Positions 39,669-63,229 of a stretch of DNA of 64,000 nt are shown here, in pieces. The number at the start of each line of letters is the position of its first letter. The first letter of the stretch is position 1. The notes beneath the pieces were generated by a model that had not been told where the DNA came from, ran no database searches, and saw only the letters and a list, made by a program, of their open reading frames with translations. The position numbers were made by a program, and so were the translations under genes. The DNA comes from Burkholderiales bacterium (GTDB lineage: Bacteria > Pseudomonadota > Gammaproteobacteria > Burkholderiales > Burkholderiaceae_C): contig CANHVY010000018.1 of assembly GCA_947464185.1 (NCBI GenBank), forward strand, positions 3,220 to 67,219, written 5' to 3'.

Positions 39669-39762
39669 GGCTCGGCTTGTCCGGGCCGCTCTTTTTTCTG
39701 GCTCGGCTTGTCCGGGCCGCTCTTTTTTCTGGCCCGGCTTGTCCGGGCCGTCTTCTTTTTCT
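39669..39762 (+). repeat. Three tandem ~31-nt units, each a terminator-like hairpin plus T-tract
   Basis: Units at 39669-39699, 39700-39730 and 39731-39762. Each reads GGC(T/C)CGG-cttgt-CCGGGCC followed by a CTCTTTTTTCT-like T-rich tail. Confidence 0.75.
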
Positions 39763-39846
39763 GCCGGACTTTCTGTCCGAGCGCACCTACCGTCCGAGCT
39801 TCTTGCCCGGGCTTTCTGTCCGGAGCCTCCAGGCAGCGTCCGTGGT

Positions 39847-52227: not shown

Positions 52228-55200
52228 TCAGATGAGACGGAGCAATTCATGCGCTTGTCGGAGGCCGCGGGTCGCGCGCGTCCACCACTGGGAGAAGCTG
52301 CTGCAGGGGCGCTCCACGGGTGGGAACAGGCCGGGTGATGGCTCGCACTGCGCCACGGCAGGCAGCCAGGCTTGCAGATGCGGGTCGCTCACGCTGCGCA
52401 CCGAGGCCGCGCCGTGCAGAGCGCGTTGGAGCTCCGCCGTGCTCGCCCACCAGCAATTTGAAGTCACACCGGCCATGGCCGCATGCACCCAGCGCCAGCG
52501 CGCTTCAGGCCACGGCCAAGTCTGGTGATGCTCGCGCAGGAAAACGCCGATGACGAAGGTGCCCTCAGGCAAGTCCAGCGGGGGCGGCCGCAGCGCCCAG
52601 GGGTGCACCAGCCACACATGGCGGCCTTGCAAGGACTTCACATCGCCGGCGGCCGGCCTCGTCAAGCCCAGGTCTGCAGGTGGGCTGTGCAGGAGCGGCG
52701 GCTCGGAGATGCCGCCTGGCGTCAACGCGAAGGTACGCGGCGGCGGCCCGGATCGCCCGGGGTGCTCACCCCGGGCCAGCCGATCCAGCGCCTCGTAGCT
52801 CTGGTCCACCACCGTGCTCGGGCTGTGCCAGTGCGGCGGGGCGTACCGCGCCACGTTCTCGGCGTTGAACAGGTAAGGCTTGTGGCTGCCCGTGCCGGCC
52901 ACCCACTGCCAGCTCAGGTGGTTGCTGGCCAGGTCGCCGTCCAGCAGGTGCGCCACCATCCAGTCCGCCCCGGCGCGCCAGTGCACCTGGCGCAGGTGCA
53001 CCACGTAGCTGGCCAGCCACATGCGGGCGTGGTTGTGCAGCGTGCCCGTGGTGTAGAGCGTGCGCACGGCCTCGTCCACCACCGGCACGCCTGTGCGCGC
53101 CTGGCGGATGTCGGCCGGCAGCTCCCTGGCGTAGGCGCCGTCAGGGCGCGGGCCGGGATGGACAGAAGTCAGGATGCCGTCACCCAGGTGGCCCCAGGCA
53201 TGGCGGAAGAACTCGCGCCAGCCCAGTTCGAACACCAGCTTGTGCTGCACCTCCAGCGGCCCGCGCTCCAGCACGCCGGCCAGCACCTCGGGCAGCGTCA
53301 CCAGGCCGTGGGTGATGTAGGGCGACAGGCCCGTCACCGCCCCTTCCAGGTGGTTGCGCGTGCGGGCATAGGCCGTGGGCCGCACCTGTCGCACGCGCTC
53401 CAGCGCAGCGCTGCGGGTGGGCGGCAAGGCGTCCGCCCAGGTTGAGGCAGGCGCCACAGGTGCAGGGTTGAGCCGCGCAGCCAGTTTGGCAAAGAAGTCC
53501 AGGCTGGCGGGGTTGAGCATGGCGTCCGCGCTGGCCACCTGGTGACGGGGCTGGCCCAGCAGCAGCTTGCGCACCGGCACCTCCATCTTCTTGCCCGTCA
53601 GCGTGCGGGGAATCTCCGCCACCTGCATCACCTCGTCGGGCACATGCCGGGCCGAGGCCTTGGTGCGGATCTCGTTCGCGATGCGGGCCTTCAGCGCCTC
53701 GTCCAGCACGCAGCCGGGCTGCAGCACCACGAACAGCGGCAGGAAGGAAGGCCGGCCCAGGTACTCCAGGTCGACCACCAGGCTGTCCCGCACCTCGGGC
53801 AGTTCCTCCACCACACGGTAGATCTCGGCCGTGCCCATGCGGATGCCGAAGCGGTTGATGGTGCTGTCGGAGCGGCCGTAGATCACCGAGGTGCCGCGCG
53901 GGGTGAAGCGGATCCAGTCGCCATGGCGCCACACCCCGGGAAAGGTCTCGAAGTAGCTCTCCAGGTAGCGGCGTTGGCCAGGGTCGTTCCAGAAGTACAG
54001 CGGCATGGACGGCATGGGCTGCGTGATCACCAGCTCGCCCACCTCGTCGGTCACGGGCTGGCCCGCCTCGTTGTACGCACACGCGGCCACGCCCAGCTCG
54101 GCGTGCTGGATCTCGCCCGCCGTCACCGGCAAGCCGGGCGCGCAGGCCACGAAGCCCGAGGCGATGTCCGTGCCGCCGCTGATGGAGGCCAGCCAGACAT
54201 CAGGCTTCACGTCCGCGTACACCCATCGATAGGCCTCGATGGGCAAGGGCGAGCCGGTGGAGTTGAGGGCGCGCAGCGCCGTCAAGGCAGCGAAGTCCCG
54301 CGGCCGCAGCCCGTCCTTCATGCAGTTGACCAGGAAGGCCGCTCCGCACCCCAGCAAGGTCACGCCCTGCTCGTCGATGAAGCGCCACAGCGCCTGGCTG
54401 TCGGGCCAGGCCGGGTTGCCGTCGTACAGCACGATGGACGCCCCCGTCAGCAGCCCGCCCACCTGCAGGTTCCACACGATCCAGCCCGTGCCGCCCAGGA
54501 ACAACATCCGGTCGCCCGCGCGCAGATCGTGCTGCAGGGCCAGGGTCTTCAGGTGCGTGAGCACGATGCCGCCATGCCCGTGCACCATGGCCTTGGGCAG
54601 GCCCGTGGTGCCCGAGGAGTAGACGATCCACAGCGGATGGTCGAAGGGCAGGCGCTCGAAGCGCAGCTCGGCCGGCTGCGCCACCGCCTCGGCCCAGCTC
54701 ACGCAGTCACGCCAGGCGGCCGGCGGCTGCGCGGCCGCGGGCCCGGGCACGTGCACCACGGTGCGGATGCTCGGCAGCTCACGCAGCAGTTCGGCCACCA
54801 CGTCCGCTCGGTGGTGGATCTTGCCGTTGTGGTGCACGCTGTCGGTGGCCAGCAGCAGCTTGGGCTCGATCTGGCGCAGACGGTCCAGCACCACCGTGGC
54901 GCCCATGTCGGGCCCACAGCTCGACCAGACGGCGCCAATGCTGGCACAGGCCAGGAAGGCCACCACCGTCTCCGCGCGGTTGGGCAGGTAGGCGGCCACC
55001 CGGTCGCCCGCCCCCACGCCCAGCGCACGCAGGCGTTCGGCCAAGGCGCCTGTGTCGCGCTGCAAGTCCGCCCAGGACACCTGCTGCACGGGCGCATCCT
55101 CCCGGCGGGTGATGAGGGCCGGGCGCGCGTCGGTGGCGTTACGGAACACATGCTCCGCGTAGTTCAGCCTGGCGTTCGGGAACCACGACGCACCAGGCAT

Positions 55201-55542
55201 CTGGCGCGACCCCAGCACCGGCTGGCAAGAGCCATCGGCCAGTACCTGGAAGTGGTCCCAGATGGACTGCCAGAAGGGCTCGATGTGATCGACCGACCAG
55301 CGCCACAGGTCTCGGTAGTCGGCAAACGCCAGCCCGCGTTCAGCCTGCAGCCAGCGTTCGTAGGCCGCCAGGGCCGACGCGGCCACCTGCTCTGGCGCCG
55401 GTTGCCACAGCAGCGTGCCCTCGACGGGCGCAGGGGAAGTGGGAGGGTTCAAGACAGGGCCTGAAGAGAAACGGCCGCGCAGAATACGGCACCGCCAGCC
55501 CCGCCGCAGATCCCGGGCCGGGCACCCCCGCGGCGCAGTCAA
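52228..55542 (-). CDS. Acetoacetyl-CoA synthetase fused in frame to a photolyase/cryptochrome-like FAD-binding module
   Basis: Residues ~30-690 match acetoacetate-CoA ligase (YSSGTTGLPKAMVH, YGRSDSTINRFGIRMGTAEIY, ...NPASLDFF). Residues ~705-925 carry photolyase FAD-domain blocks (TGLSPYITHG, LHNHARMWLASY, DGDLASNHLSWQWVAGTG). No stop codon separates them. The first ~30 aa are Arg-rich, so a TTG start at 55452 is a plausible alternative. Confidence 0.75.
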   Translation of the reverse strand: MTAPRGCPARDLRRGWRCRILRGRFSSGPVLNPPTSPAPVEGTLLWQPAPEQVAASALAAYERWLQAERGLAFADYRDLWRWSVDHIEPFWQSIWDHFQVLADGSCQPVLGSRQMPGASWFPNARLNYAEHVFRNATDARPALITRREDAPVQQVSWADLQRDTGALAERLRALGVGAGDRVAAYLPNRAETVVAFLACASIGAVWSSCGPDMGATVVLDRLRQIEPKLLLATDSVHHNGKIHHRADVVAELLRELPSIRTVVHVPGPAAAQPPAAWRDCVSWAEAVAQPAELRFERLPFDHPLWIVYSSGTTGLPKAMVHGHGGIVLTHLKTLALQHDLRAGDRMLFLGGTGWIVWNLQVGGLLTGASIVLYDGNPAWPDSQALWRFIDEQGVTLLGCGAAFLVNCMKDGLRPRDFAALTALRALNSTGSPLPIEAYRWVYADVKPDVWLASISGGTDIASGFVACAPGLPVTAGEIQHAELGVAACAYNEAGQPVTDEVGELVITQPMPSMPLYFWNDPGQRRYLESYFETFPGVWRHGDWIRFTPRGTSVIYGRSDSTINRFGIRMGTAEIYRVVEELPEVRDSLVVDLEYLGRPSFLPLFVVLQPGCVLDEALKARIANEIRTKASARHVPDEVMQVAEIPRTLTGKKMEVPVRKLLLGQPRHQVASADAMLNPASLDFFAKLAARLNPAPVAPASTWADALPPTRSAALERVRQVRPTAYARTRNHLEGAVTGLSPYITHGLVTLPEVLAGVLERGPLEVQHKLVFELGWREFFRHAWGHLGDGILTSVHPGPRPDGAYARELPADIRQARTGVPVVDEAVRTLYTTGTLHNHARMWLASYVVHLRQVHWRAGADWMVAHLLDGDLASNHLSWQWVAGTGSHKPYLFNAENVARYAPPHWHSPSTVVDQSYEALDRLARGEHPGRSGPPPRTFALTPGGISEPPLLHSPPADLGLTRPAAGDVKSLQGRHVWLVHPWALRPPPLDLPEGTFVIGVFLREHHQTWPWPEARWRWVHAAMAGVTSNCWWASTAELQRALHGAASVRSVSDPHLQAWLPAVAQCEPSPGLFPPVERPCSSFSQWWTRATRGLRQAHELLRLI

Positions 55543-56455: not shown

Positions 56456-56746
56456 GGGGCTTGGTGGGGGCCTGGCGTCGTGGCCCGGTGCACGGAAGAA
56501 GTCTTCCAACGTGCTCCGCATGCTGGCTCACCCCATGAGCCACATGGCCATCAGACTCGCATCCATGCATCAATCATCAAGCCCCCAGCAAAGTGGTATC
56601 CCCTGGCCTGCAAACCGAATCTCGACAGCCCATCCCGCTGCCCCGGAGTTGCCGCCGGCAGAGCCATGCCGAACAGGGCCGAAGCAAGGAAGGCCCTGTC
56701 GCCTACAGGGTTCTGACAGCTGATTGACGTGCATCAGAATCTGCCC

Positions 56747-57415
56747 ATGATCACGTTCACCGTTCGGGCGACGCTGCGCGCTCCCATCATTCGCCGGGGG
56801 TTCGTCACGTTGGACGCCCTGCTGATGGCGGTGCTCGGTCGGGGGGACGTGTCAGACCTTCTGCGGTGCGAAGACGGGTTGTATTTCGCCAGCGCCGGCA
56901 CGGTGGCGGCCGGTACCCCTCAGCAGACCGCTTCTTTCGTGGCCAGCATGCGGCCTGAACACTCGCCGCAGTGGCTGGACGTCGTCGCCCCCAACACTGC
57001 CAATGCCGACATCGGTTTTGCCGAAGGCGCCAAGGGCCGTGGCCGGCTGAACGACCTCAGGGTCGGCCTGTCCCGTCAGCGGGAAGGTGGCAACGTCATC
57101 AATGCTTATCGGGCCCAGGCCAGCACAGAAATCGAGTGGTATGCCACCGGCAGGCCTGAGGAAGTTCTGGCGGCATTGAAGGACGTGCCTTTCATCGGCA
57201 AACGCAGAACCGCAGGCTACGGCGAAGTCAGCCGCTGGGTGGTGACCCCAGGCGACTTGGACGGCGTGTCGGGTTACCTTGACGAGCCCCTCAGACCCGT
57301 TCCCGTGGACCGCTGGAAGCTGGGCGGTGACTGGATTGCCGTGGAAGCCGCCTGGAAAGCGCCTTATTGGGACGTACGCAATCGCGCGAAGTGCTTCGTG
57401 CCCTTCATCTCATGA
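56747..57415 (+). CDS. RAMP-superfamily protein, Cas5/Csf3-like candidate (first gene of the cas operon)
   Basis: N-terminal beta-strand/helix pattern MITFTVRATLRAPII..FVTLDALLMAVLG, and a glycine-rich loop FIGKRRTAGYGEV near the C-terminal third. Translationally coupled (ATGA) to the next ORF. An alternative GTG start lies at 56729. The family assignment is by eye only. Confidence 0.5.
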   Translation: MITFTVRATLRAPIIRRGFVTLDALLMAVLGRGDVSDLLRCEDGLYFASAGTVAAGTPQQTASFVASMRPEHSPQWLDVVAPNTANADIGFAEGAKGRGRLNDLRVGLSRQREGGNVINAYRAQASTEIEWYATGRPEEVLAALKDVPFIGKRRTAGYGEVSRWVVTPGDLDGVSGYLDEPLRPVPVDRWKLGGDWIAVEAAWKAPYWDVRNRAKCFVPFIS

Positions 57416-57822
57416 ACGGGGCCGAGTTCTTCATGGAGCACGCCGGCTACCGGCTGCTGCCCGAGGCGCTGGTGACCGGTGACGCCGTGGACGATGCAGG
57501 CTCGCTGTTCAATATCTCGCTGCCTTTGCACACGGGCTCGAAACTGCACTTATCCGCCTGCTGGATGGTGGTCACCCCGCAGTGGACGGCCACCAGCTTC
57601 AAGGCCTTGCCGGTGGCGGGATTTCGACTTGGAGGGGAACGGGCTGTCGCCATGCTGGAAGCCTTGAAGTCGGGTGAGCCGTGCCTGATCCTGGAGTTAC
57701 GCAGGCGCACCCTGAGGCCACGGGATCTGTTTGTGACGTATGACCCACGGGCCACCCGCATCTGTTCCGCGGGCTTGACCAGGACCCTGGACGCCACGCA
57801 GGAGAAGTGGTGGACATCCTGA
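57412..57822 (+). CDS. Small cas-operon protein of unknown family (possible minimal large/small-subunit substitute)
   Basis: 136-aa ORF, coupled on both sides by overlaps (ATGA at 57412-57415; 16-nt overlap with the next gene). No CxxC zinc-finger and no motif I can recognise. Confidence 0.4.
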   Translation: MNGAEFFMEHAGYRLLPEALVTGDAVDDAGSLFNISLPLHTGSKLHLSACWMVVTPQWTATSFKALPVAGFRLGGERAVAMLEALKSGEPCLILELRRRTLRPRDLFVTYDPRATRICSAGLTRTLDATQEKWWTS

Positions 57823-58292
57823 TCGACAAACCCGCCAAGGTGCGGGGTTACGCCTTGCACCGGCTGGTCGCACAGTACCTTCAGGGCCGACCGGCGCTTT
57901 GGGCGGACGAAGGTCAGCAAGTTCGCATTCGCCTCAAGGACGCCGCACCGCCTGAGTACGAAGTGGGCAAGGTGCTGGGCTTCACCGTCCGCGCCTGCGT
58001 CTCTTACAGCACCAAGAACCACCACCGGTACCTCCCGCTGGACGACTGGCGGGGCCGGCGGCACTGGCTGGAGTCCAAAGCGGGCGGGTGGGGCTTTGAG
58101 GTGCTGGGGGTGCATGTGCGCGGCGCCATGTCCCTCATCGAAGCCCATGACGGGCGCAGGTTCACGGTGGACGCCACCGAATTCACCGGCATCCTGCGCG
58201 TCACCGACCCCGTAGCCTTTTCAAGCTGCCTTGTCACCGGAATCGGCAAGGTGGGGCGTGCGTTCGGCCTGGGGCTTCTCATCGTTCAGTGA
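57807..58292 (+). CDS. cas6: Short Cas6-family (Cas6e/Csf5-like) crRNA endoribonuclease candidate
   Basis: The C-terminal glycine-rich loop GIGKVGRAFGLGLLIV matches the Cas6e-type G-loop (GIGrakAFGcGLL). At 161 aa it is shorter than typical Cas6e. GTG start. Confidence 0.55.
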   Translation: MVDILIDKPAKVRGYALHRLVAQYLQGRPALWADEGQQVRIRLKDAAPPEYEVGKVLGFTVRACVSYSTKNHHRYLPLDDWRGRRHWLESKAGGWGFEVLGVHVRGAMSLIEAHDGRRFTVDATEFTGILRVTDPVAFSSCLVTGIGKVGRAFGLGLLIVQ

Positions 58293-58319: not shown

Positions 58320-59288
58320 ATGACACCAGCCTTCATCTTGGCCGACGTGCTCGTTCACACCGTCCAGCCGCTGACCTACACGCACCACGGCGTGAAGGAC
58401 CTGCCCTTGATGACCCGGGGCGTGGACGGCGAAGGCAAGCCTCAACGCACGGTCTACATCCCGGCCGCGCAGTTTCGTGGGCGTTTGCGGCACGAGGCGG
58501 CCCTGGCTGAATTGCGCGCACGGCCCGCCAAGGTCAAGCTGGAGGACGCCTACATGCTCGCCCTGGGCCAGGACCTGGACCCGGAAGAAGATGAGGAACC
58601 CGAGGCCATTCGCCTGGGTGACCAGATCAAGTTCCGCAAGGACAACCCCTTTCTGGACCTCTTCGGCACCTGGAAGGTGGCCAGCCGGCTGTACGTGTCC
58701 CACCTGATGCCTGAGGTGAACCTGATGCCCGACCGTGTCAGCCACATCCGGCGTGACCTCGACAGTGACGAAGACATGATGGGGCTGCTGGGAGATGACG
58801 AGCAGAACCGGATGTACGACCGGCAAACCAAGCAAGCGATGGCCTCCAAGGTGGGCACGCTCATCAAGCAGGCTGAAGCGGCGCTGAAGACAGCCCGCAA
58901 GCAACGCGACACGGCCCTGGTCGACCAGCTAGAAGCAAACCTCAAGGAGTTGAAAGACCTCAAGAAGCAACGCAAGGGCGATGACGAGTCCGACAACACC
59001 AAGCTCCTCGTGGAGTTGCAGGTGATTCCCGCAGGGATTGACCTGCTGGGCAAGATCACGGTTCAGGGCCCGCGCCCGTCAGACCTGATGTATCTCACCC
59101 AGGCGTTTGAAGCCTTGAGCCTCAAGCCCATGCTGGGCGCGCAGCGGGCACGCGGCTGTGGCGAGGTGCGGGGGCAGGCCAGCTTCCGGCTGCCGACTGG
59201 TGAACCTCTGGCCACAGTGGCGTTCGGGGGCTTCGTGCCGACACCGACACAGTGGACGGATGCAGGCCGGGCGTTCATGAACGCCTGA
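58320..59288 (+). CDS. cas7: Cas7-family backbone subunit (Csf2-like) with charged helical insertion
   Basis: RAMP/Cas7 signatures IPAAQFRGRLRH (compare IPGSSlKGalR), NPFLDLFG, and the G-rich loop GAQRARGCGEV. Residues ~145-226 are a Lys/Glu/Asp-rich predicted helical insertion. Confidence 0.6.
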   Translation: MTPAFILADVLVHTVQPLTYTHHGVKDLPLMTRGVDGEGKPQRTVYIPAAQFRGRLRHEAALAELRARPAKVKLEDAYMLALGQDLDPEEDEEPEAIRLGDQIKFRKDNPFLDLFGTWKVASRLYVSHLMPEVNLMPDRVSHIRRDLDSDEDMMGLLGDDEQNRMYDRQTKQAMASKVGTLIKQAEAALKTARKQRDTALVDQLEANLKELKDLKKQRKGDDESDNTKLLVELQVIPAGIDLLGKITVQGPRPSDLMYLTQAFEALSLKPMLGAQRARGCGEVRGQASFRLPTGEPLATVAFGGFVPTPTQWTDAGRAFMNA

Positions 59289-59294
59289 GTTCAC

Positions 59295-60878
59295 GTGGGC
59301 TACAGAAGCGCAGAGCAGCAGGCTTACGCCCGGCTCATCGAGGGGGCGCTGCGCCCGGGGGCGCCCCTGCTGGCCGGGGCTGCGCCCGGCCTGGGCAAGA
59401 CACATGGCTATTCCCTGCCCCTGGTGGCCTGCGGGCAGCGCGTGGCCGTGGCCATGAGCACCCGGCAGTTGATCGAGCAGTACCTGCAAAGCGACGCCTT
59501 GCGTGAAGCCCTGACGCTCAGGCCGGCCTCGGTGATGGCGCTGCACCCGCGTCGAGACTTTGGGTCCGATGCGGCTTATCGGGAACACCGCGCCGCCGCC
59601 CTGAAGGCGGAAGTTCTGGTGGTGACCCACGCGGCCACGCTGATCGACAGTTGGCACCCGGGCTACGCCGAACTGCGGTCCCGCCAAGTGGTGCTGTTCG
59701 ACGAAGCCGATCTCCTGGCGGACGCGGCCGATCTCAGAAGCACCTTCAGCATCGACGCCGAGGTACTGGAGGCCTGCAAGGCCCTGAACCTGCCCCACCA
59801 GGAAGCCGCCCAGGCGGTCAAGGACAAGGCTGAAGCGCCGGAAGACCGGGCTGCCGCCTCTGCCATCCTCTTCGCCCTGGCGCACCCGGCTTGGTACAAG
59901 GCCGTGGGCCGGGAGGAGGATGGGGCCCTGACCCTGAAGCACCGGATGCCGGGCAGGATGCTCAGGCGCCTGGTGGAGGAGGTGCCCCGGTGCATCTTCA
60001 CCAGCGGCACGCTCCAGGTGGGCGGCAGATTCGACCATTTCGTCAGCGCCATCGGCTTGAAGTCCATCTCCCCTGAAAGCCGGCACATCGACCCTGCCCG
60101 CCACGGTGAACTGGAGGTGGAACTGGCCGCAGCCGAACTGACCGTGTCGCAGATGGCCGCGCGCATTCGGGCGGCGGAGCGTCCCACGCTGGTGCTGACC
60201 ACCAGCCACGCCATGACACAAGCGCTGGGAGAACTTTGCCCAGGCGCCGTCTGGCGGGCGCCCGGTGAGCCCCTGGGCGACGCATTGAGACGCGTGCCCG
60301 ACGGTGGAGTCTTCATCGCCGCGGGTGCATGGTCTGGCGTGGACGATCCTCGACTGCGATGGCGTACCGTGGTGATCCCGAAGACCCCCTACCAGCGGCC
60401 CGCAGTCCTGGACTCCATCCAGGTCACCCGGTACCTGGACGCCAAAGTGGTGGCCCTGAGGCGAACCCACCAGGGGCTGCACCGCGGGCTGCGCACGCCG
60501 GAGGCGAAGTGCAGGTTGCTGCTGCTGGATCCGCGAAGCGGGCGGGTTGAACTGCGAGAGGCGATCCCTGCGCGCTTCCGGGTGGATTGGCAGGGCTTCG
60601 ACGAAGGGTCTCCCACCCTGCGTGCCCATGTGGCCGGCGAGCGCCACCTCACGCTTCGCAACGCGGCGTTGCAAGCCCTGGGGGCGCGTTGCAGTCACCC
60701 GGGCTGCGAGGTCGCGGCCCTGCACCTGCTGGACGTGCATCACCTGAAGCCCGTGGCCGAAGGCCCGCGCCGCACCACCCTGGAGGACGTCACGGTTCTG
60801 TGCAAAAACCACCACGCCGAGGCCCATCACCGGATGCGCCAGGGCGAAATTTCAGCAACGCAGGAGGAAGATTCCTGA
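59295..60878 (+). CDS. dinG: DinG-family SF2 helicase fused to a C-terminal HNH nuclease (CasDinG-HNH)
   Basis: Helicase motifs: I AGAAPGLGKTHGY, II VVLFDEADLL, SAT-like FTSGTL, V AAGAWSGVDDP, IPKTPY, and VI THQGLHRGLRTPEAKCRLLLLDPR. HNH: CSHPGC...DVHHLKPVAEG...VLCKNHHAEAHH (residues ~450-512, nt ~60642-60830). GTG start 6 nt after the cas7 stop. The array begins 27 nt after its stop. Confidence 0.8.
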   Translation: MGYRSAEQQAYARLIEGALRPGAPLLAGAAPGLGKTHGYSLPLVACGQRVAVAMSTRQLIEQYLQSDALREALTLRPASVMALHPRRDFGSDAAYREHRAAALKAEVLVVTHAATLIDSWHPGYAELRSRQVVLFDEADLLADAADLRSTFSIDAEVLEACKALNLPHQEAAQAVKDKAEAPEDRAAASAILFALAHPAWYKAVGREEDGALTLKHRMPGRMLRRLVEEVPRCIFTSGTLQVGGRFDHFVSAIGLKSISPESRHIDPARHGELEVELAAAELTVSQMAARIRAAERPTLVLTTSHAMTQALGELCPGAVWRAPGEPLGDALRRVPDGGVFIAAGAWSGVDDPRLRWRTVVIPKTPYQRPAVLDSIQVTRYLDAKVVALRRTHQGLHRGLRTPEAKCRLLLLDPRSGRVELREAIPARFRVDWQGFDEGSPTLRAHVAGERHLTLRNAALQALGARCSHPGCEVAALHLLDVHHLKPVAEGPRRTTLEDVTVLCKNHHAEAHHRMRQGEISATQEEDS

Positions 60879-60905: not shown

Positions 60906-61337
60906 GGTCAAGCCGCCTGTTGAATGGGCGGTTACTGGAACGACCTGTGGACGCGCCACATGGGCCTGCGCGGTCAAGCCGCCTGTTGAATGGGCGGTTA
61001 CTGGAACACCGTCACGCTCACCGCCTTCCGCGCGCCGGGTCAAGCCGCCTGTTGGATGGGCGGTTACTGGAACGATGTGGTGGGCCAGGCGCGGCCGCTG
61101 CTCGGTCAAGCCGCCTGTTGGATGGGCGGTTACTGGAACGTGTAGCCCAGGTTGCCGTACAGCAGGGTCGGTCAAGCCGCCTGTTGGATCGGCGGTTACT
61201 GGAACGGGTTGGTGTCCATCAGGTAGCCAAGCCAGGATCAAGCCGCCTGTTAGATGGGCGGTTACTGGAACATGAAGCAAGTGGTGGGCGAGGCCTGGCG
61301 GGGTCAAGCCGCCCATTGGATGGGCGGTTACTGGAGG
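60906..61337 (+). CRISPR. CRISPR array: 7 repeats (36 nt) and 6 spacers (30 nt), exact 66-nt period
   Basis: Repeats start at 60906, 60972, 61038, 61104, 61170, 61236 and 61302. Consensus GGTCAAGCCGCCTGTTGGATGGGCGGTTACTGGAAC. An internal hairpin (A)GCCGCC-N9-GGCGG(TT) is followed by 8 nt, ACTGGAAC. The last repeat is degenerate at its 3' end (..GGAGG). All six spacers are unique. Confidence 0.92.
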
Positions 61338-61433: not shown

Positions 61434-61754
61434 ATGACCGCCTCAACAACAGTCTTCTCCCCCACTTCTGCCGCCCAGCCCCTGCTGACAGCCACCCAGC
61501 TCGGTCAGCTGCTGCGCGCCGCGCGCAAGCAGCAGGGTCTGACGCAGGCCGAGGTGGGTGCGCGGCTGGGCTTGAGCCAGAACCGGGTCTCGCACCTGGA
61601 GGGCCACGCAGATGAGCTGAGCGTCAAGCAACTGCTGACCTGGTGCGCCGTGGTCGGTCTGGAGCTGAGTCTGGCGCATCGCCTGGCCAAGGCGCCTGAA
61701 GCCGGCGAGGTCCAGGCCCCTGGGTCTGCCGCCGCCACGCCGCCGGAGTGGTGA
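61434..61754 (+). CDS. hipB: XRE-family HTH antitoxin (HipB-like)
   Basis: HTH GLTQAEVGARLGLSQNRVSHLE. 106 aa, ending 1 nt before hipA. Confidence 0.8.
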   Translation: MTASTTVFSPTSAAQPLLTATQLGQLLRAARKQQGLTQAEVGARLGLSQNRVSHLEGHADELSVKQLLTWCAVVGLELSLAHRLAKAPEAGEVQAPGSAAATPPEW

Positions 61755-61755
61755 G

Positions 61756-63099
61756 ATGGCACGCCGCTCCAAAGCCCAGACCTTGGCCTTGTGGGCCAAC
61801 GGCACCTACGTCGGGCGCTGGACCGTCAGCGCCCGCGGCGAGATGGAGCTGCGGTACGACCCCGCATGGCGGGCGTCAGCCGTCGGGCGACCCTTGTCGC
61901 TGTCGATGCCCTTCGGCCTGGGGGACGAGCCGCTCAAGGGGCCCGCAGTCGAGCACTACTTCGACAACCTGCTGCCCGACAGCCCGGCCATCCGCAAGCG
62001 GGTGGCGGAGCGTTTCCGCACCGGGTCGGTCGAGGCCTTCGACCTGCTGGCGGCCATCGGCCGCGACTGCGTGGGTGCGCTGCAATTCCTGCCTGAGGGC
62101 GCGGCGCCCGAGGGGCTTGACCGGGTCGAGGGCGTCGAGGTGGACGAGGTCGCCATCGAGCGGCACCTGCTCGAGGTCGTGACGCCAGACCGGTTCGGCG
62201 CGGCACGTGACCGTGACGACGACTTCAGGATTTCGCTGGCTGGCGCGCAAGAAAAGGACGCCTTCCTGCGCTGGAACGGTCACTGGATGAAGCCGCGCGG
62301 CTCAACGCCCACCACGCACATCTTCAAGCTGCCATTGGGGCTTGTCGGCGGGCGGCAGGCCGACTTCAGCACCTCGGTGGACAACGAGTGGCTGTGCCTG
62401 AAGCTGCTGGCGGCGTACGGCCTGCCGGTGCCCCAGGCGGAGATTGTGTCGTTTGGTCAGCAGCGCGTGCTGGTGGTCGAGCGCTTCGACCGCATGGTGT
62501 CAGCCGATGGCCAGCGGCTGCTGCGGCTGGTGCAGGAGGACTTCTGCCAGGCGACCGGCACGTCGCCGCTGGTGAAGTACGAGGCGGAGGGCGGCCCCGG
62601 GCTGGGCGTGCTGTTCAACCTGCTTCAGCAGTCGGTCGACGCGGAGCGCGACCTGCGCACCCTGATGACCTCGCAGCTGCTGTTCTGGATGCTCCGGGCG
62701 CCGGATGGGCACGCAAAGAACTTCAGCATCCACCTGCTCCCAGGTGGACGCTACCGCATGACGCCGATCTATGACGTCATGTCGGCCTACCCCGTCATGG
62801 GCGATGCGCCCAACCAGTGGTCACCGCGGGCGCTCAAGCTGGCGATGGCCCTTGTGGGGAAGAACCGGCACTACGAGGTAGAACGCATCCAGCGGCGCCA
62901 CTTCAACAGCACCGCCAAGCGCTTCGGCTACGGCGAGACCGCAGAGCCCTTGATTCAGGAGTTCATTGCACGCACGCCGGCCGTCATCGACGAGGTGCAA
63001 AGGGCACTGCCGCCAGGGTTCTCCGACGAGGTGGCCGCCAAGGTGCTGAGCGGGCTGCAGGGCGCAGCGCGCGCCCTCGAGGCCATGTCGCCGGGCTGA
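61756..63099 (+). CDS. hipA: HipA-family serine/threonine kinase toxin
   Basis: HipA N-terminal coupling domain (LWANGTYVGRW), SLAGAQEKDAF, and the catalytic loop DGHAKNFS. 447 aa. Confidence 0.9.
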   Translation: MARRSKAQTLALWANGTYVGRWTVSARGEMELRYDPAWRASAVGRPLSLSMPFGLGDEPLKGPAVEHYFDNLLPDSPAIRKRVAERFRTGSVEAFDLLAAIGRDCVGALQFLPEGAAPEGLDRVEGVEVDEVAIERHLLEVVTPDRFGAARDRDDDFRISLAGAQEKDAFLRWNGHWMKPRGSTPTTHIFKLPLGLVGGRQADFSTSVDNEWLCLKLLAAYGLPVPQAEIVSFGQQRVLVVERFDRMVSADGQRLLRLVQEDFCQATGTSPLVKYEAEGGPGLGVLFNLLQQSVDAERDLRTLMTSQLLFWMLRAPDGHAKNFSIHLLPGGRYRMTPIYDVMSAYPVMGDAPNQWSPRALKLAMALVGKNRHYEVERIQRRHFNSTAKRFGYGETAEPLIQEFIARTPAVIDEVQRALPPGFSDEVAAKVLSGLQGAARALEAMSPG

Positions 63100-63117: not shown

Positions 63118-63154
63118 GGGCCAGCTTCTTGCGAAGCTGGCCCTCATCTTTCTT
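63118..63154 (+). terminator. Intrinsic terminator after hipA
   Basis: GGGCCAGCTTC-ttgc-GAAGCTGGCCC (11-bp stem) followed by TCATCTTTCTT. Confidence 0.75.
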
Positions 63155-63229
63155 GGCTCCCCGACCTGGGCTCGAACCAGGGACCTACGGATTAACAGTC
63201 CGGCGCTCTACCGACTGAGCTATCGAGGA
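63154..63229 (-). tRNA. tRNA-Asn (anticodon GTT), CCA encoded
   Basis: The reverse complement reads TCCTCGATAGCTCAGTCGGTAGAGCGCCGGACTGTTAATCCGTAGGTCCCTGGTTCGAGCCCAGGTCGGGGAGCCA. It has a 7-bp acceptor stem, a D-loop AGCTCAGTCGGTAGAGC, an anticodon loop CTGTTAA and a T-loop GGTTCGAGCC. Confidence 0.95.

Follow-up and report, generated by a model that had tools for sequence, protein, structure and literature searches.

A probable type IV-A2 CRISPR-Cas locus with a CasDinG-HNH effector in a Burkholderiales bacterium

Type IV CRISPR-Cas systems in which a DinG helicase carries an HNH nuclease domain are a published and classified kind. The system of Sulfitobacter sp. JL08 was characterised by Altae-Tran et al. 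(Science 2023; PMC10910872); it showed plasmid interference dependent on a 5'-YCN protospacer-adjacent motif (PAM), had spacers of 30 nucleotides (nt) and required all five of its components. Its activity was lost when D139/E140 and H497/D514/H523 were mutated, both DNA strands were cleaved directionally (5'->3'), and the analogy to Cas3 was drawn explicitly (PMC10910872). The architecture was classed as variant IV-A2 by Makarova et al. 2025 (PMC12669027), and a 2025 review named the subgroup CasDinG-HNH and listed two alphaproteobacterial genomes only (PMC11981726). In this study, a further, betaproteobacterial example was analysed in a 64,000-nt stretch of DNA, called the window here, from a Burkholderiales bacterium (assembly GCA_947464185.1, contig CANHVY010000018.1, positions 3,220 to 67,219). 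The gene under study, casDinG-HNH (59295–60878, + strand), very probably encodes the effector helicase-nuclease of a type IV-A2 system. The principle of a DinG helicase plus HNH as a Cas3 substitute in type IV is established and the locus changes no concept; it extends IV-A2 from the two genomes of the review to a betaproteobacterial clade.

The protein sequences and repeat of the Sulfitobacter system were taken from the published plasmid map, and the proteins were compared by pairwise BLASTP. The two loci agreed in the content and order of their five genes, in the lengths of repeats (36 nt) and spacers (30 nt), and in a repeat hairpin with an 8-nt ACU... handle after it. Residues 3–511 of the 527-amino-acid (aa) DinG-HNH protein aligned with its Sulfitobacter counterpart (35% identity, E 2e-91), as did Csf3 (34%, E 1e-36), Cas6 (38%, E 8e-35) and Csf2 (33%, E 6e-40); for the small subunit, the alignment was limited to a 31-residue patch (39% identity, E 3e-8). 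The Walker B and HNH catalytic residues were kept: D139/E140, H497, D514 and H523 of the Sulfitobacter protein aligned to D136/E137, H483, D498 and H507 in the window protein. In a family alignment of 27 relatives (50–89% identity), D136, E137, H483 and H507 were invariant. Both proteins lack an Fe-S cluster and an N-terminal domain and have a compact Arch domain, and the CCN flank of the natural protospacers in this study fits the published YCN PAM. The differences were that four of the proteins were only 33–38% identical and the small subunit was almost unalignable; that the DinG-HNH protein has 527 aa against 557 aa; that the zinc site is of the CCCH type with C-x4-C, compared with C-x2-C ... 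C-x2-C in Sulfitobacter; that the host is betaproteobacterial and not alphaproteobacterial; and that here, as in eight related loci (L001–L008), dinG-HNH is immediately followed by the array.

The casDinG-HNH gene closed a tightly spaced run of five genes, all on the + strand, in the order csf3, small subunit, cas6e-like, csf2 and dinG-HNH. The csf3 gene (type IV Cas5; 56747–57415, 222 aa) was placed with the start of a public-contig gene call, while the longest open reading frame (ORF) starts at 56729; its product matched the PADLOC model Csf3_0_IV (2.6e-24) and TIGR03116 (6e-7). The cas6e-like gene (57810–58292, 160 aa) encodes a putative crRNA (CRISPR RNA)-processing endoribonuclease (PF08798, 7.3e-17; PADLOC Cas6_5_IV, 6.2e-21), and csf2 (58320–59288, 322 aa) encodes the type IV Cas7 backbone subunit (PADLOC Csf2_0_IV, 3.2e-32; TIGR03115, 8e-7). 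The dinG-HNH gene starts 6 nt past csf2. Thus, PADLOC type IV models matched four of the five operon proteins, and NCBIfam and Pfam concurred with lower scores. The fifth, the small subunit (57412–57822, 136 aa; longest ORF 151 aa, from 57367), had no profile match in Pfam, NCBIfam or PADLOC. It was conserved, with an unchanged place in the operon, in 10 related loci (L001–L009 and L011; E 2e-7 to 3e-60) and appears to correspond to the "M protein (Csf1/Cas8)" of the Sulfitobacter system, an assignment based on its position, its conservation in these 10 loci and the 31-residue patch.

The DinG-HNH ORF has a GTG start and zero internal stops (ORF listing and translation). The original prediction, made from the DNA letters alone, had described a DinG-family helicase with a C-terminal HNH nuclease in one protein. 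The possibility that this fusion is an artefact, with a sequencing or assembly frameshift joining separate helicase and HNH genes, has next to no probability. Versions of the helicase without HNH do exist (e.g., P0118, 475 aa), which speaks for it; however, more than 100 independent homologue clusters of 507–546 aa covered 97–100% of the query in one frame, the identical 527-aa protein was called as a single gene on four other public contigs, and the Sulfitobacter protein has the same fused layout. The frameshift artefact was therefore rejected on the homologue clusters and the four gene calls.

The XPD/DinG-type superfamily 2 (SF2) helicase core occupies residues 1 to about 432 (59295–60590). 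All motifs quoted in the original prediction were found at their positions and in the expected order, with GLGKT at 32–36, DEAD at 136–139, SGT at 237–239, GAWSG at 344–348 and QGLHRGLR at 393–400. Walker A (G32–T36), Walker B (D136–D139, the DEAD box), motif III (S237–T239) and motif VI (Q393–R400) were invariant in the 27 homologues, so that the ATPase-competent motifs stood up to alignment. Between Walker A and Walker B there was a single Cys, C46, which was neither an invariant nor an at least 90%-conserved column. Because one lone, non-conserved Cys lies in this interval, the protein is judged from its sequence to lack the four-Cys Fe-S cluster of cellular DinG/XPD, as had been proposed. 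A linker of about 40 aa had been placed after the helicase. Residues 415–450 do exist, but they were partly conserved (IPARF 424–428 and EG 437–438 in the 27-homologue alignment) and, rather than being a free linker, probably complete the second helicase lobe.

The profile and structure matches bear on whether the protein belongs to the CRISPR locus at all. In PADLOC, it matched Csf4_2_IVA1 with 153.8 bits (1.7e-45) and a second type IV DinG model with 127 bits. In NCBIfam, the best matches were YoaA (62.8 bits) and DinG (42.3 bits), and the Csf4 equivalog TIGR03117 scored 16.6 bits only; these matches would favour a repair helicase of the DinG/YoaA kind that has an HNH tail, serves in housekeeping or as a stand-alone defence, and merely neighbours a CRISPR locus. 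However, every NCBIfam score was far under its cut-off (680 bits for YoaA, 598–789 for DinG and 400 for TIGR03117). In addition, the gene lies on the same strand 6 nt after csf2, it accompanies the same four cas genes in nine related loci, each related locus with flanking DNA bears a related array, and the four-Cys cluster is absent. Such a housekeeping or stand-alone role is very improbable. An identity with cellular DinG or YoaA was rejected on the sub-threshold NCBIfam scores, the missing four-Cys cluster and the PADLOC type IV match. In a Foldseek search with the whole AlphaFold2 model (mean pLDDT, the model's confidence score, 75.7), the type IV-A3 CasDinG chain 8s35_M ranked first (E 2.4e-14), followed by archaeal XPD, E. 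coli DinG and P. aeruginosa CasDinG (E 2e-14 to 1e-11 overall). The earlier view of a CRISPR-associated and not a housekeeping DinG therefore gained support from profile, structure, operon and array.

The protein had also been described as smaller than known CasDinG proteins, and solved CasDinG chains indeed have 584–624 residues. Walker A begins at residue 32, and the distance from Walker A to Walker B is about 100 residues compared with about 175 in 8s35_M (alignment offsets). The 2025 review describes, for the CasDinG-HNH subgroup, a compact Arch of three helices and three strands, a pFeS region of only two helices and a beta-hairpin that replaces the spring helix (PMC11981726). The AlphaFold2 model contained helices at 57–64 and 67–75, an Arch region at about 151–230, and strands at 370–372 and 375–377. 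On this model, the pFeS region is predicted to be condensed, the Arch domain compact and the N-terminal accessory domain absent; since these are the elements of the review, the small size is already explained by the compact Arch and condensed pFeS (PMC11981726).

The HNH (beta-beta-alpha-metal) domain lies at residues 450–512 (60642–60830, + strand), the coordinates given for it earlier. Its motifs are CSHPGC (466–471), DVHH (480–483), CKNHH (503–507) and AEAHH (508–512). The predicted catalytic residues are H483, D498 (the "N" position) and H507, and C466, C471, C503 and H506 are putative zinc ligands. C466, H482, H483, C503 and H507 were invariant in the 27 homologues and position 498 was always acidic (D or E); C471 and H511 were at least 90% conserved in the same alignment, and N505 in a 19-sequence alignment of the C-terminal domain. 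PF01844 was matched by six of the 27 homologues individually (best 8e-7). A profile of the C-terminal 80 residues, searched against the PDB, found McrA (6ghc, 2.2e-5) as well as pyocin AP41, the ZRANB3 HNH domain, a group II intron maturase and colicins E7/E9. In the AlphaFold2 model, strands at 479–483 and 499–503 and a helix at 504–526 gave a beta-beta-alpha layout across 479–526. The assignment as HNH thus appears solid at the family level, though weak on the single sequence.

A search of 5.8 billion proteins recovered 123 relatives of DinG-HNH. The betaproteobacterial clade was well populated: its metagenomic members formed over 120 clusters at the 90% identity level, and the family was abundant in betaproteobacterial metagenome bins. 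A genome scan found 11 loci with a DinG-HNH relative in metagenome-assembled genomes (MAGs) of Burkholderiales (Polaromonas, Rhodoferax and others); the scan recovered Burkholderiales relatives only because the two peptide patterns used were family-specific, and it is silent on wider distribution. Eight loci (L001–L008) had all five proteins in the same order with an array directly downstream of dinG-HNH. L009 had all five in the order cas6-csf2-csf3-small-dinG; L011 had four of the five, the contig end cutting csf2 and leaving cas6 beyond view; and L010 had DinG-HNH next to an array, with no other cas protein seen. Repeats of 36 nt, mostly with a 66-nt period, were present in all 11 loci, and each locus with DNA beside the dinG-HNH gene carried a related array. 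In L009, L010 and L011 (Rhodoferax/"Bordetella" MAG relatives, 40–43% identity), the array was upstream of dinG-HNH; in L009 it separated dinG-HNH from the small-subunit gene, and in L011 it separated csf2 from csf3. The cassette has therefore been rearranged within the family. When DinG-HNH was searched against PLSDB by tblastn, only the C-terminal helicase lobe of the IV-A3 DinG of Klebsiella/Raoultella conjugative plasmids was found (28% identity, 27% coverage), so that there was no evidence of a plasmid-borne family in that collection.

Several relatives differed in the nuclease. P0118, P0131 and P0135 are compact CasDinG proteins of 466–480 aa that aligned to the helicase part and lacked HNH. 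P0118 (L026, 3502–4929; 475 aa) was 47% identical to the window protein and came from a complete gene in an operon of the same kind (csf3, small subunit, cas6 and csf2). Beyond the stop codon of this gene lay AT-rich sequence and an apparent first CRISPR repeat, about 35 nt from the contig end. In the metagenomic protein P0109 (626 aa), helicase and HNH were joined by about 100 residues of low-complexity linker, and its catalytic "HH" was changed to "HD" ("EIHD"); its nuclease may have been inactivated. HNH seems to have been gained or lost within the CasDinG scaffold.

These relatives also bear on whether the HNH domain of the window protein cuts. The system might act like the canonical IV-A1/A3 systems, by interference without cutting, with HNH inactive or a mere DNA- or zinc-binding module. 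In favour of this, the set of zinc ligands (CCCH) is not the canonical one, and close relatives without HNH (P0118) or with the general-base His replaced (P0109) indicate that the nuclease is dispensable in some lineages. However, H483 and H507 were invariant and position 498 was always acidic in the 27 homologues, the same triad is essential in the tested homologue, and its retention across sequences only 50–89% identical argues for a selected catalytic function. Interference without cutting is therefore unlikely, and a cutting effector is preferred.

A broader joint reading of the family, held tentatively and at somewhat less than even chances, is that the Burkholderiales proteins form a distinct compact IV-A2 lineage (507–546 aa, mostly a CCCH zinc site, array directly downstream), that the two traced spacers match temperate-phage genes, and that HNH was gained or lost repeatedly. 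If this holds, one effector scaffold would exist in two interchangeable states, interfering either with or without the nuclease. Relatives without HNH occur in operons of the same type and provide a natural comparison with which to judge what the nuclease adds.

The CRISPR array (60906–61337, + strand) had seven 36-nt repeats (GGTCAAGCCGCCTGTTGGATGGGCGGTTACTGGAAC) and six 30-nt spacers; its first repeat lies 27 nt past the dinG-HNH stop codon, and the final (seventh) repeat was degenerate with 4 mismatches. The repeat folds to a 7-bp hairpin, with compensatory changes across the related loci (e.g., G-C to A-U in five of 10 sequences), and after the hairpin there was a conserved 8-nt repeat tail, ACTRGAAC, in these loci. 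Hairpin and 8-nt tail are what a Cas6-type enzyme leaves as 5' handle; therefore, the array would be transcribed on the + strand.

To trace natural targets, IMG/VR was scanned with the spacers, every sixth base set to N. Spacer 3 (61074–61103, + strand) matched phage integrase genes in eight IMG/VR contigs (28–29 of 30 positions identical, mismatches at 18 and 30 only; 5' flank CCC, CCT or CCA), and the target ORF was a phrog_1 integrase (5.4e-52). Spacer 5 (61206–61235, + strand) matched phage large-terminase genes in five contigs (28 of 30 identical, mismatches at 12 and 24; 5' flank CCG), with the target ORF assigned to phrog_15 TerL (4.9e-239). A 5'-CCN flank was present on all 13 protospacers and the opposite flank was not conserved. 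The CCN flank agrees with the published YCN PAM and with + strand transcription, an agreement that is suggestive, not statistical, coming from two independent spacers; the CCN-flanked phage protospacers provide an independent in-nature check of that PAM. Spacers 1, 2, 4 and 6 gave zero matches in exact IMG/VR scans; the whole array compared by BLAST with GenBank phages and PLSDB plasmids gave chance-level matches only (E 0.1–0.4); and no spacer had a self-target in the window with up to six mismatches allowed. The traced targets suggest phage defence as a natural role. Titles cited in PMC10910872 describe plasmids as the targets of canonical type IV-A systems.

Several observations weigh against the assignment to a cutting type IV-A2 system. 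On the single sequence, the Pfam check proposed for both domains succeeded in part: DEAD matched (4.6e-7), Helicase_C_2 reached 2e-4 but 21.7 bits against a threshold of 25.3, and HNH was weak (E 0.28; 11.8 bits against 21.4), the match of PF01844 being found in the homologues. The zinc site is non-canonical (C-x4-C ... C-x2-H), while the Sulfitobacter protein and some family members have C-x2-C ... C-x2-C. The tested homologue is only 35% identical and its small subunit barely alignable, so that activity of the window system is a prediction by homology. No promoter or leader of the array was found, and the promoter and terminator scan yielded no usable result for operon or array. PADLOC gave no match to Cas1, Cas3 or any other cas gene among 72 ORFs of at least 230 aa in window 1–51.4 kb, Cas2-sized ORFs and the ORFs of 51.4–56.7 kb being outside that scan. 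Since no Cas1 was detected there, spacer acquisition is not explained by the window, and it presumably occurs in trans. The mismatches of the 13 protospacers, confined to positions 12, 18, 24 or 30, count in favour of the assignment, since a mismatch at every sixth base is expected of Cas7-backbone (Cascade-type) complexes; however, this pattern was partly imposed by the search, in which those positions were N.

With these points weighed, a cutting type IV-A2 effector is still considered very probable, and the following mechanism is proposed. The array would be transcribed on the + strand. What was observed at the locus is its gene content and order, intact catalytic residues, the repeat hairpin and natural phage protospacers flanked by CCN; how crRNAs are processed, how the complex assembles and recruits the effector, which way the effector moves and that it cuts both strands are inferred by homology to the Sulfitobacter sp. 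JL08 system. The Cas6e-like protein would cut the repeats at the hairpin base, so that each crRNA has its 30-nt spacer between an 8-nt 5' handle (ACUGGAAC) and a 3' hairpin. Around the crRNA, a Cascade-like complex would be built from Csf3, several copies of Csf2, Cas6 and the small Csf1/Cas8-like subunit; it would locate double-stranded DNA with a 5'-CCN (YCN) PAM and form an R-loop. CasDinG-HNH would be recruited to the displaced non-target strand, hydrolyse ATP and translocate 5'->3', and the moving C-terminal HNH would cut both strands, giving directional degradation of the invader, a Cas3-like outcome from unrelated parts. Recruitment by a Cascade-like complex and a Cas3-like function had been put forward in the original prediction; the proposal is supported by the full-length alignment with the Sulfitobacter sp. 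JL08 homologue, for which unwinding and cutting were shown experimentally (PMC10910872). The shorter orthologue (527 aa) could interest builders of compact class 1 editing or deletion tools.

Directly 3' of the array, a hipB (helix-turn-helix) / hipA (HipA_C, 2.4e-48) toxin-antitoxin pair was located at 61434–63099 (+ strand), followed by a tRNA-Asn gene at 63154–63229 (- strand). The cas genes, array and hipBA formed a block of about 6.5 kb with a G+C content of 0.60–0.68, compared with 0.69–0.74 around it; the block adjoins tRNA-Asn and lies between housekeeping genes, which suggests a small island at a tRNA gene. In the related loci, hipB, hipA and the EEP gene of the upstream stretch had no tblastn match; therefore, the cassette sits in different contexts elsewhere.

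That upstream stretch (51.4–56.7 kb) contained a GST-like ORF, an AMP-binding/photolyase fusion and the EEP-family gene. The fusion was a single 1104-aa ORF (52228–55542, - strand) with an acetoacetyl-/acetyl-CoA-synthetase-like AMP-binding enzyme at residues ~75–650, continuing in frame with a photolyase/cryptochrome FAD_binding_7 domain (residues 770–895) and a tail of about 200 aa; a true, unusual fusion or the loss of a stop codon between two separate genes would account for it. Elsewhere, a 31-nt unit in three tandem copies with 93% identity was found at 39669–39763 (GGCTCGGCTTGTCCGGGCCGCTCTTTTTTCT). In window 1–51400, the ORF 21–1157 matched a PADLOC RT-protease/trypsin-like model (4e-17), and lone ORFs matched RmuC-like, patatin-like phospholipase and CARF3 (7e-8) models. 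These matches were isolated and domain-level, and PADLOC detected no coherent defence system among the ORFs of at least 230 aa in this part.

Compared with other known systems, the window protein was closest, in structure and in defence profile, to canonical CasDinG (Csf4) of types IV-A1 (P. aeruginosa, 8e2w/7xf0) and IV-A3 (K. pneumoniae, 8s35). These share the XPD/DinG-type SF2 helicase without Fe-S cluster, are encoded with Csf1/2/3 and Cas6, and are recruited to a Cascade-like complex. However, canonical CasDinG has no nuclease domain and interferes without cleavage, while HNH is present in the window protein; it is also longer (about 600–624 aa), its pFeS and Arch are larger than those of the window protein, and the IV-A1 form needs an N-terminal domain that is absent here.

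The likeness to Cas3 of type I is functional only: both would be SF2 helicase-nucleases recruited to a Cascade R-loop for directional degradation of the target. Cas3 carries an HD nuclease, compared with HNH on a DinG/XPD-type helicase in the window protein, in which Pfam, NCBIfam and PADLOC gave no HD or Cas3 match. Cas3 moves 3'->5' on the non-target strand, whereas CasDinG moves 5'->3'. The Cas3 helicase is only distantly related to DinG (PMC10910872). HNH-Cascade variants are known as I-E2 (Cas5-HNH) and I-F4 (Cas8-HNH) (PMC12669027), and they resemble the window system in that a class 1 effector has independently captured HNH as a substitute for Cas3. In I-E2 and I-F4, however, HNH is part of a Cascade subunit that stays in place, and it cuts precisely, while in the window system it is carried by a helicase predicted to translocate.

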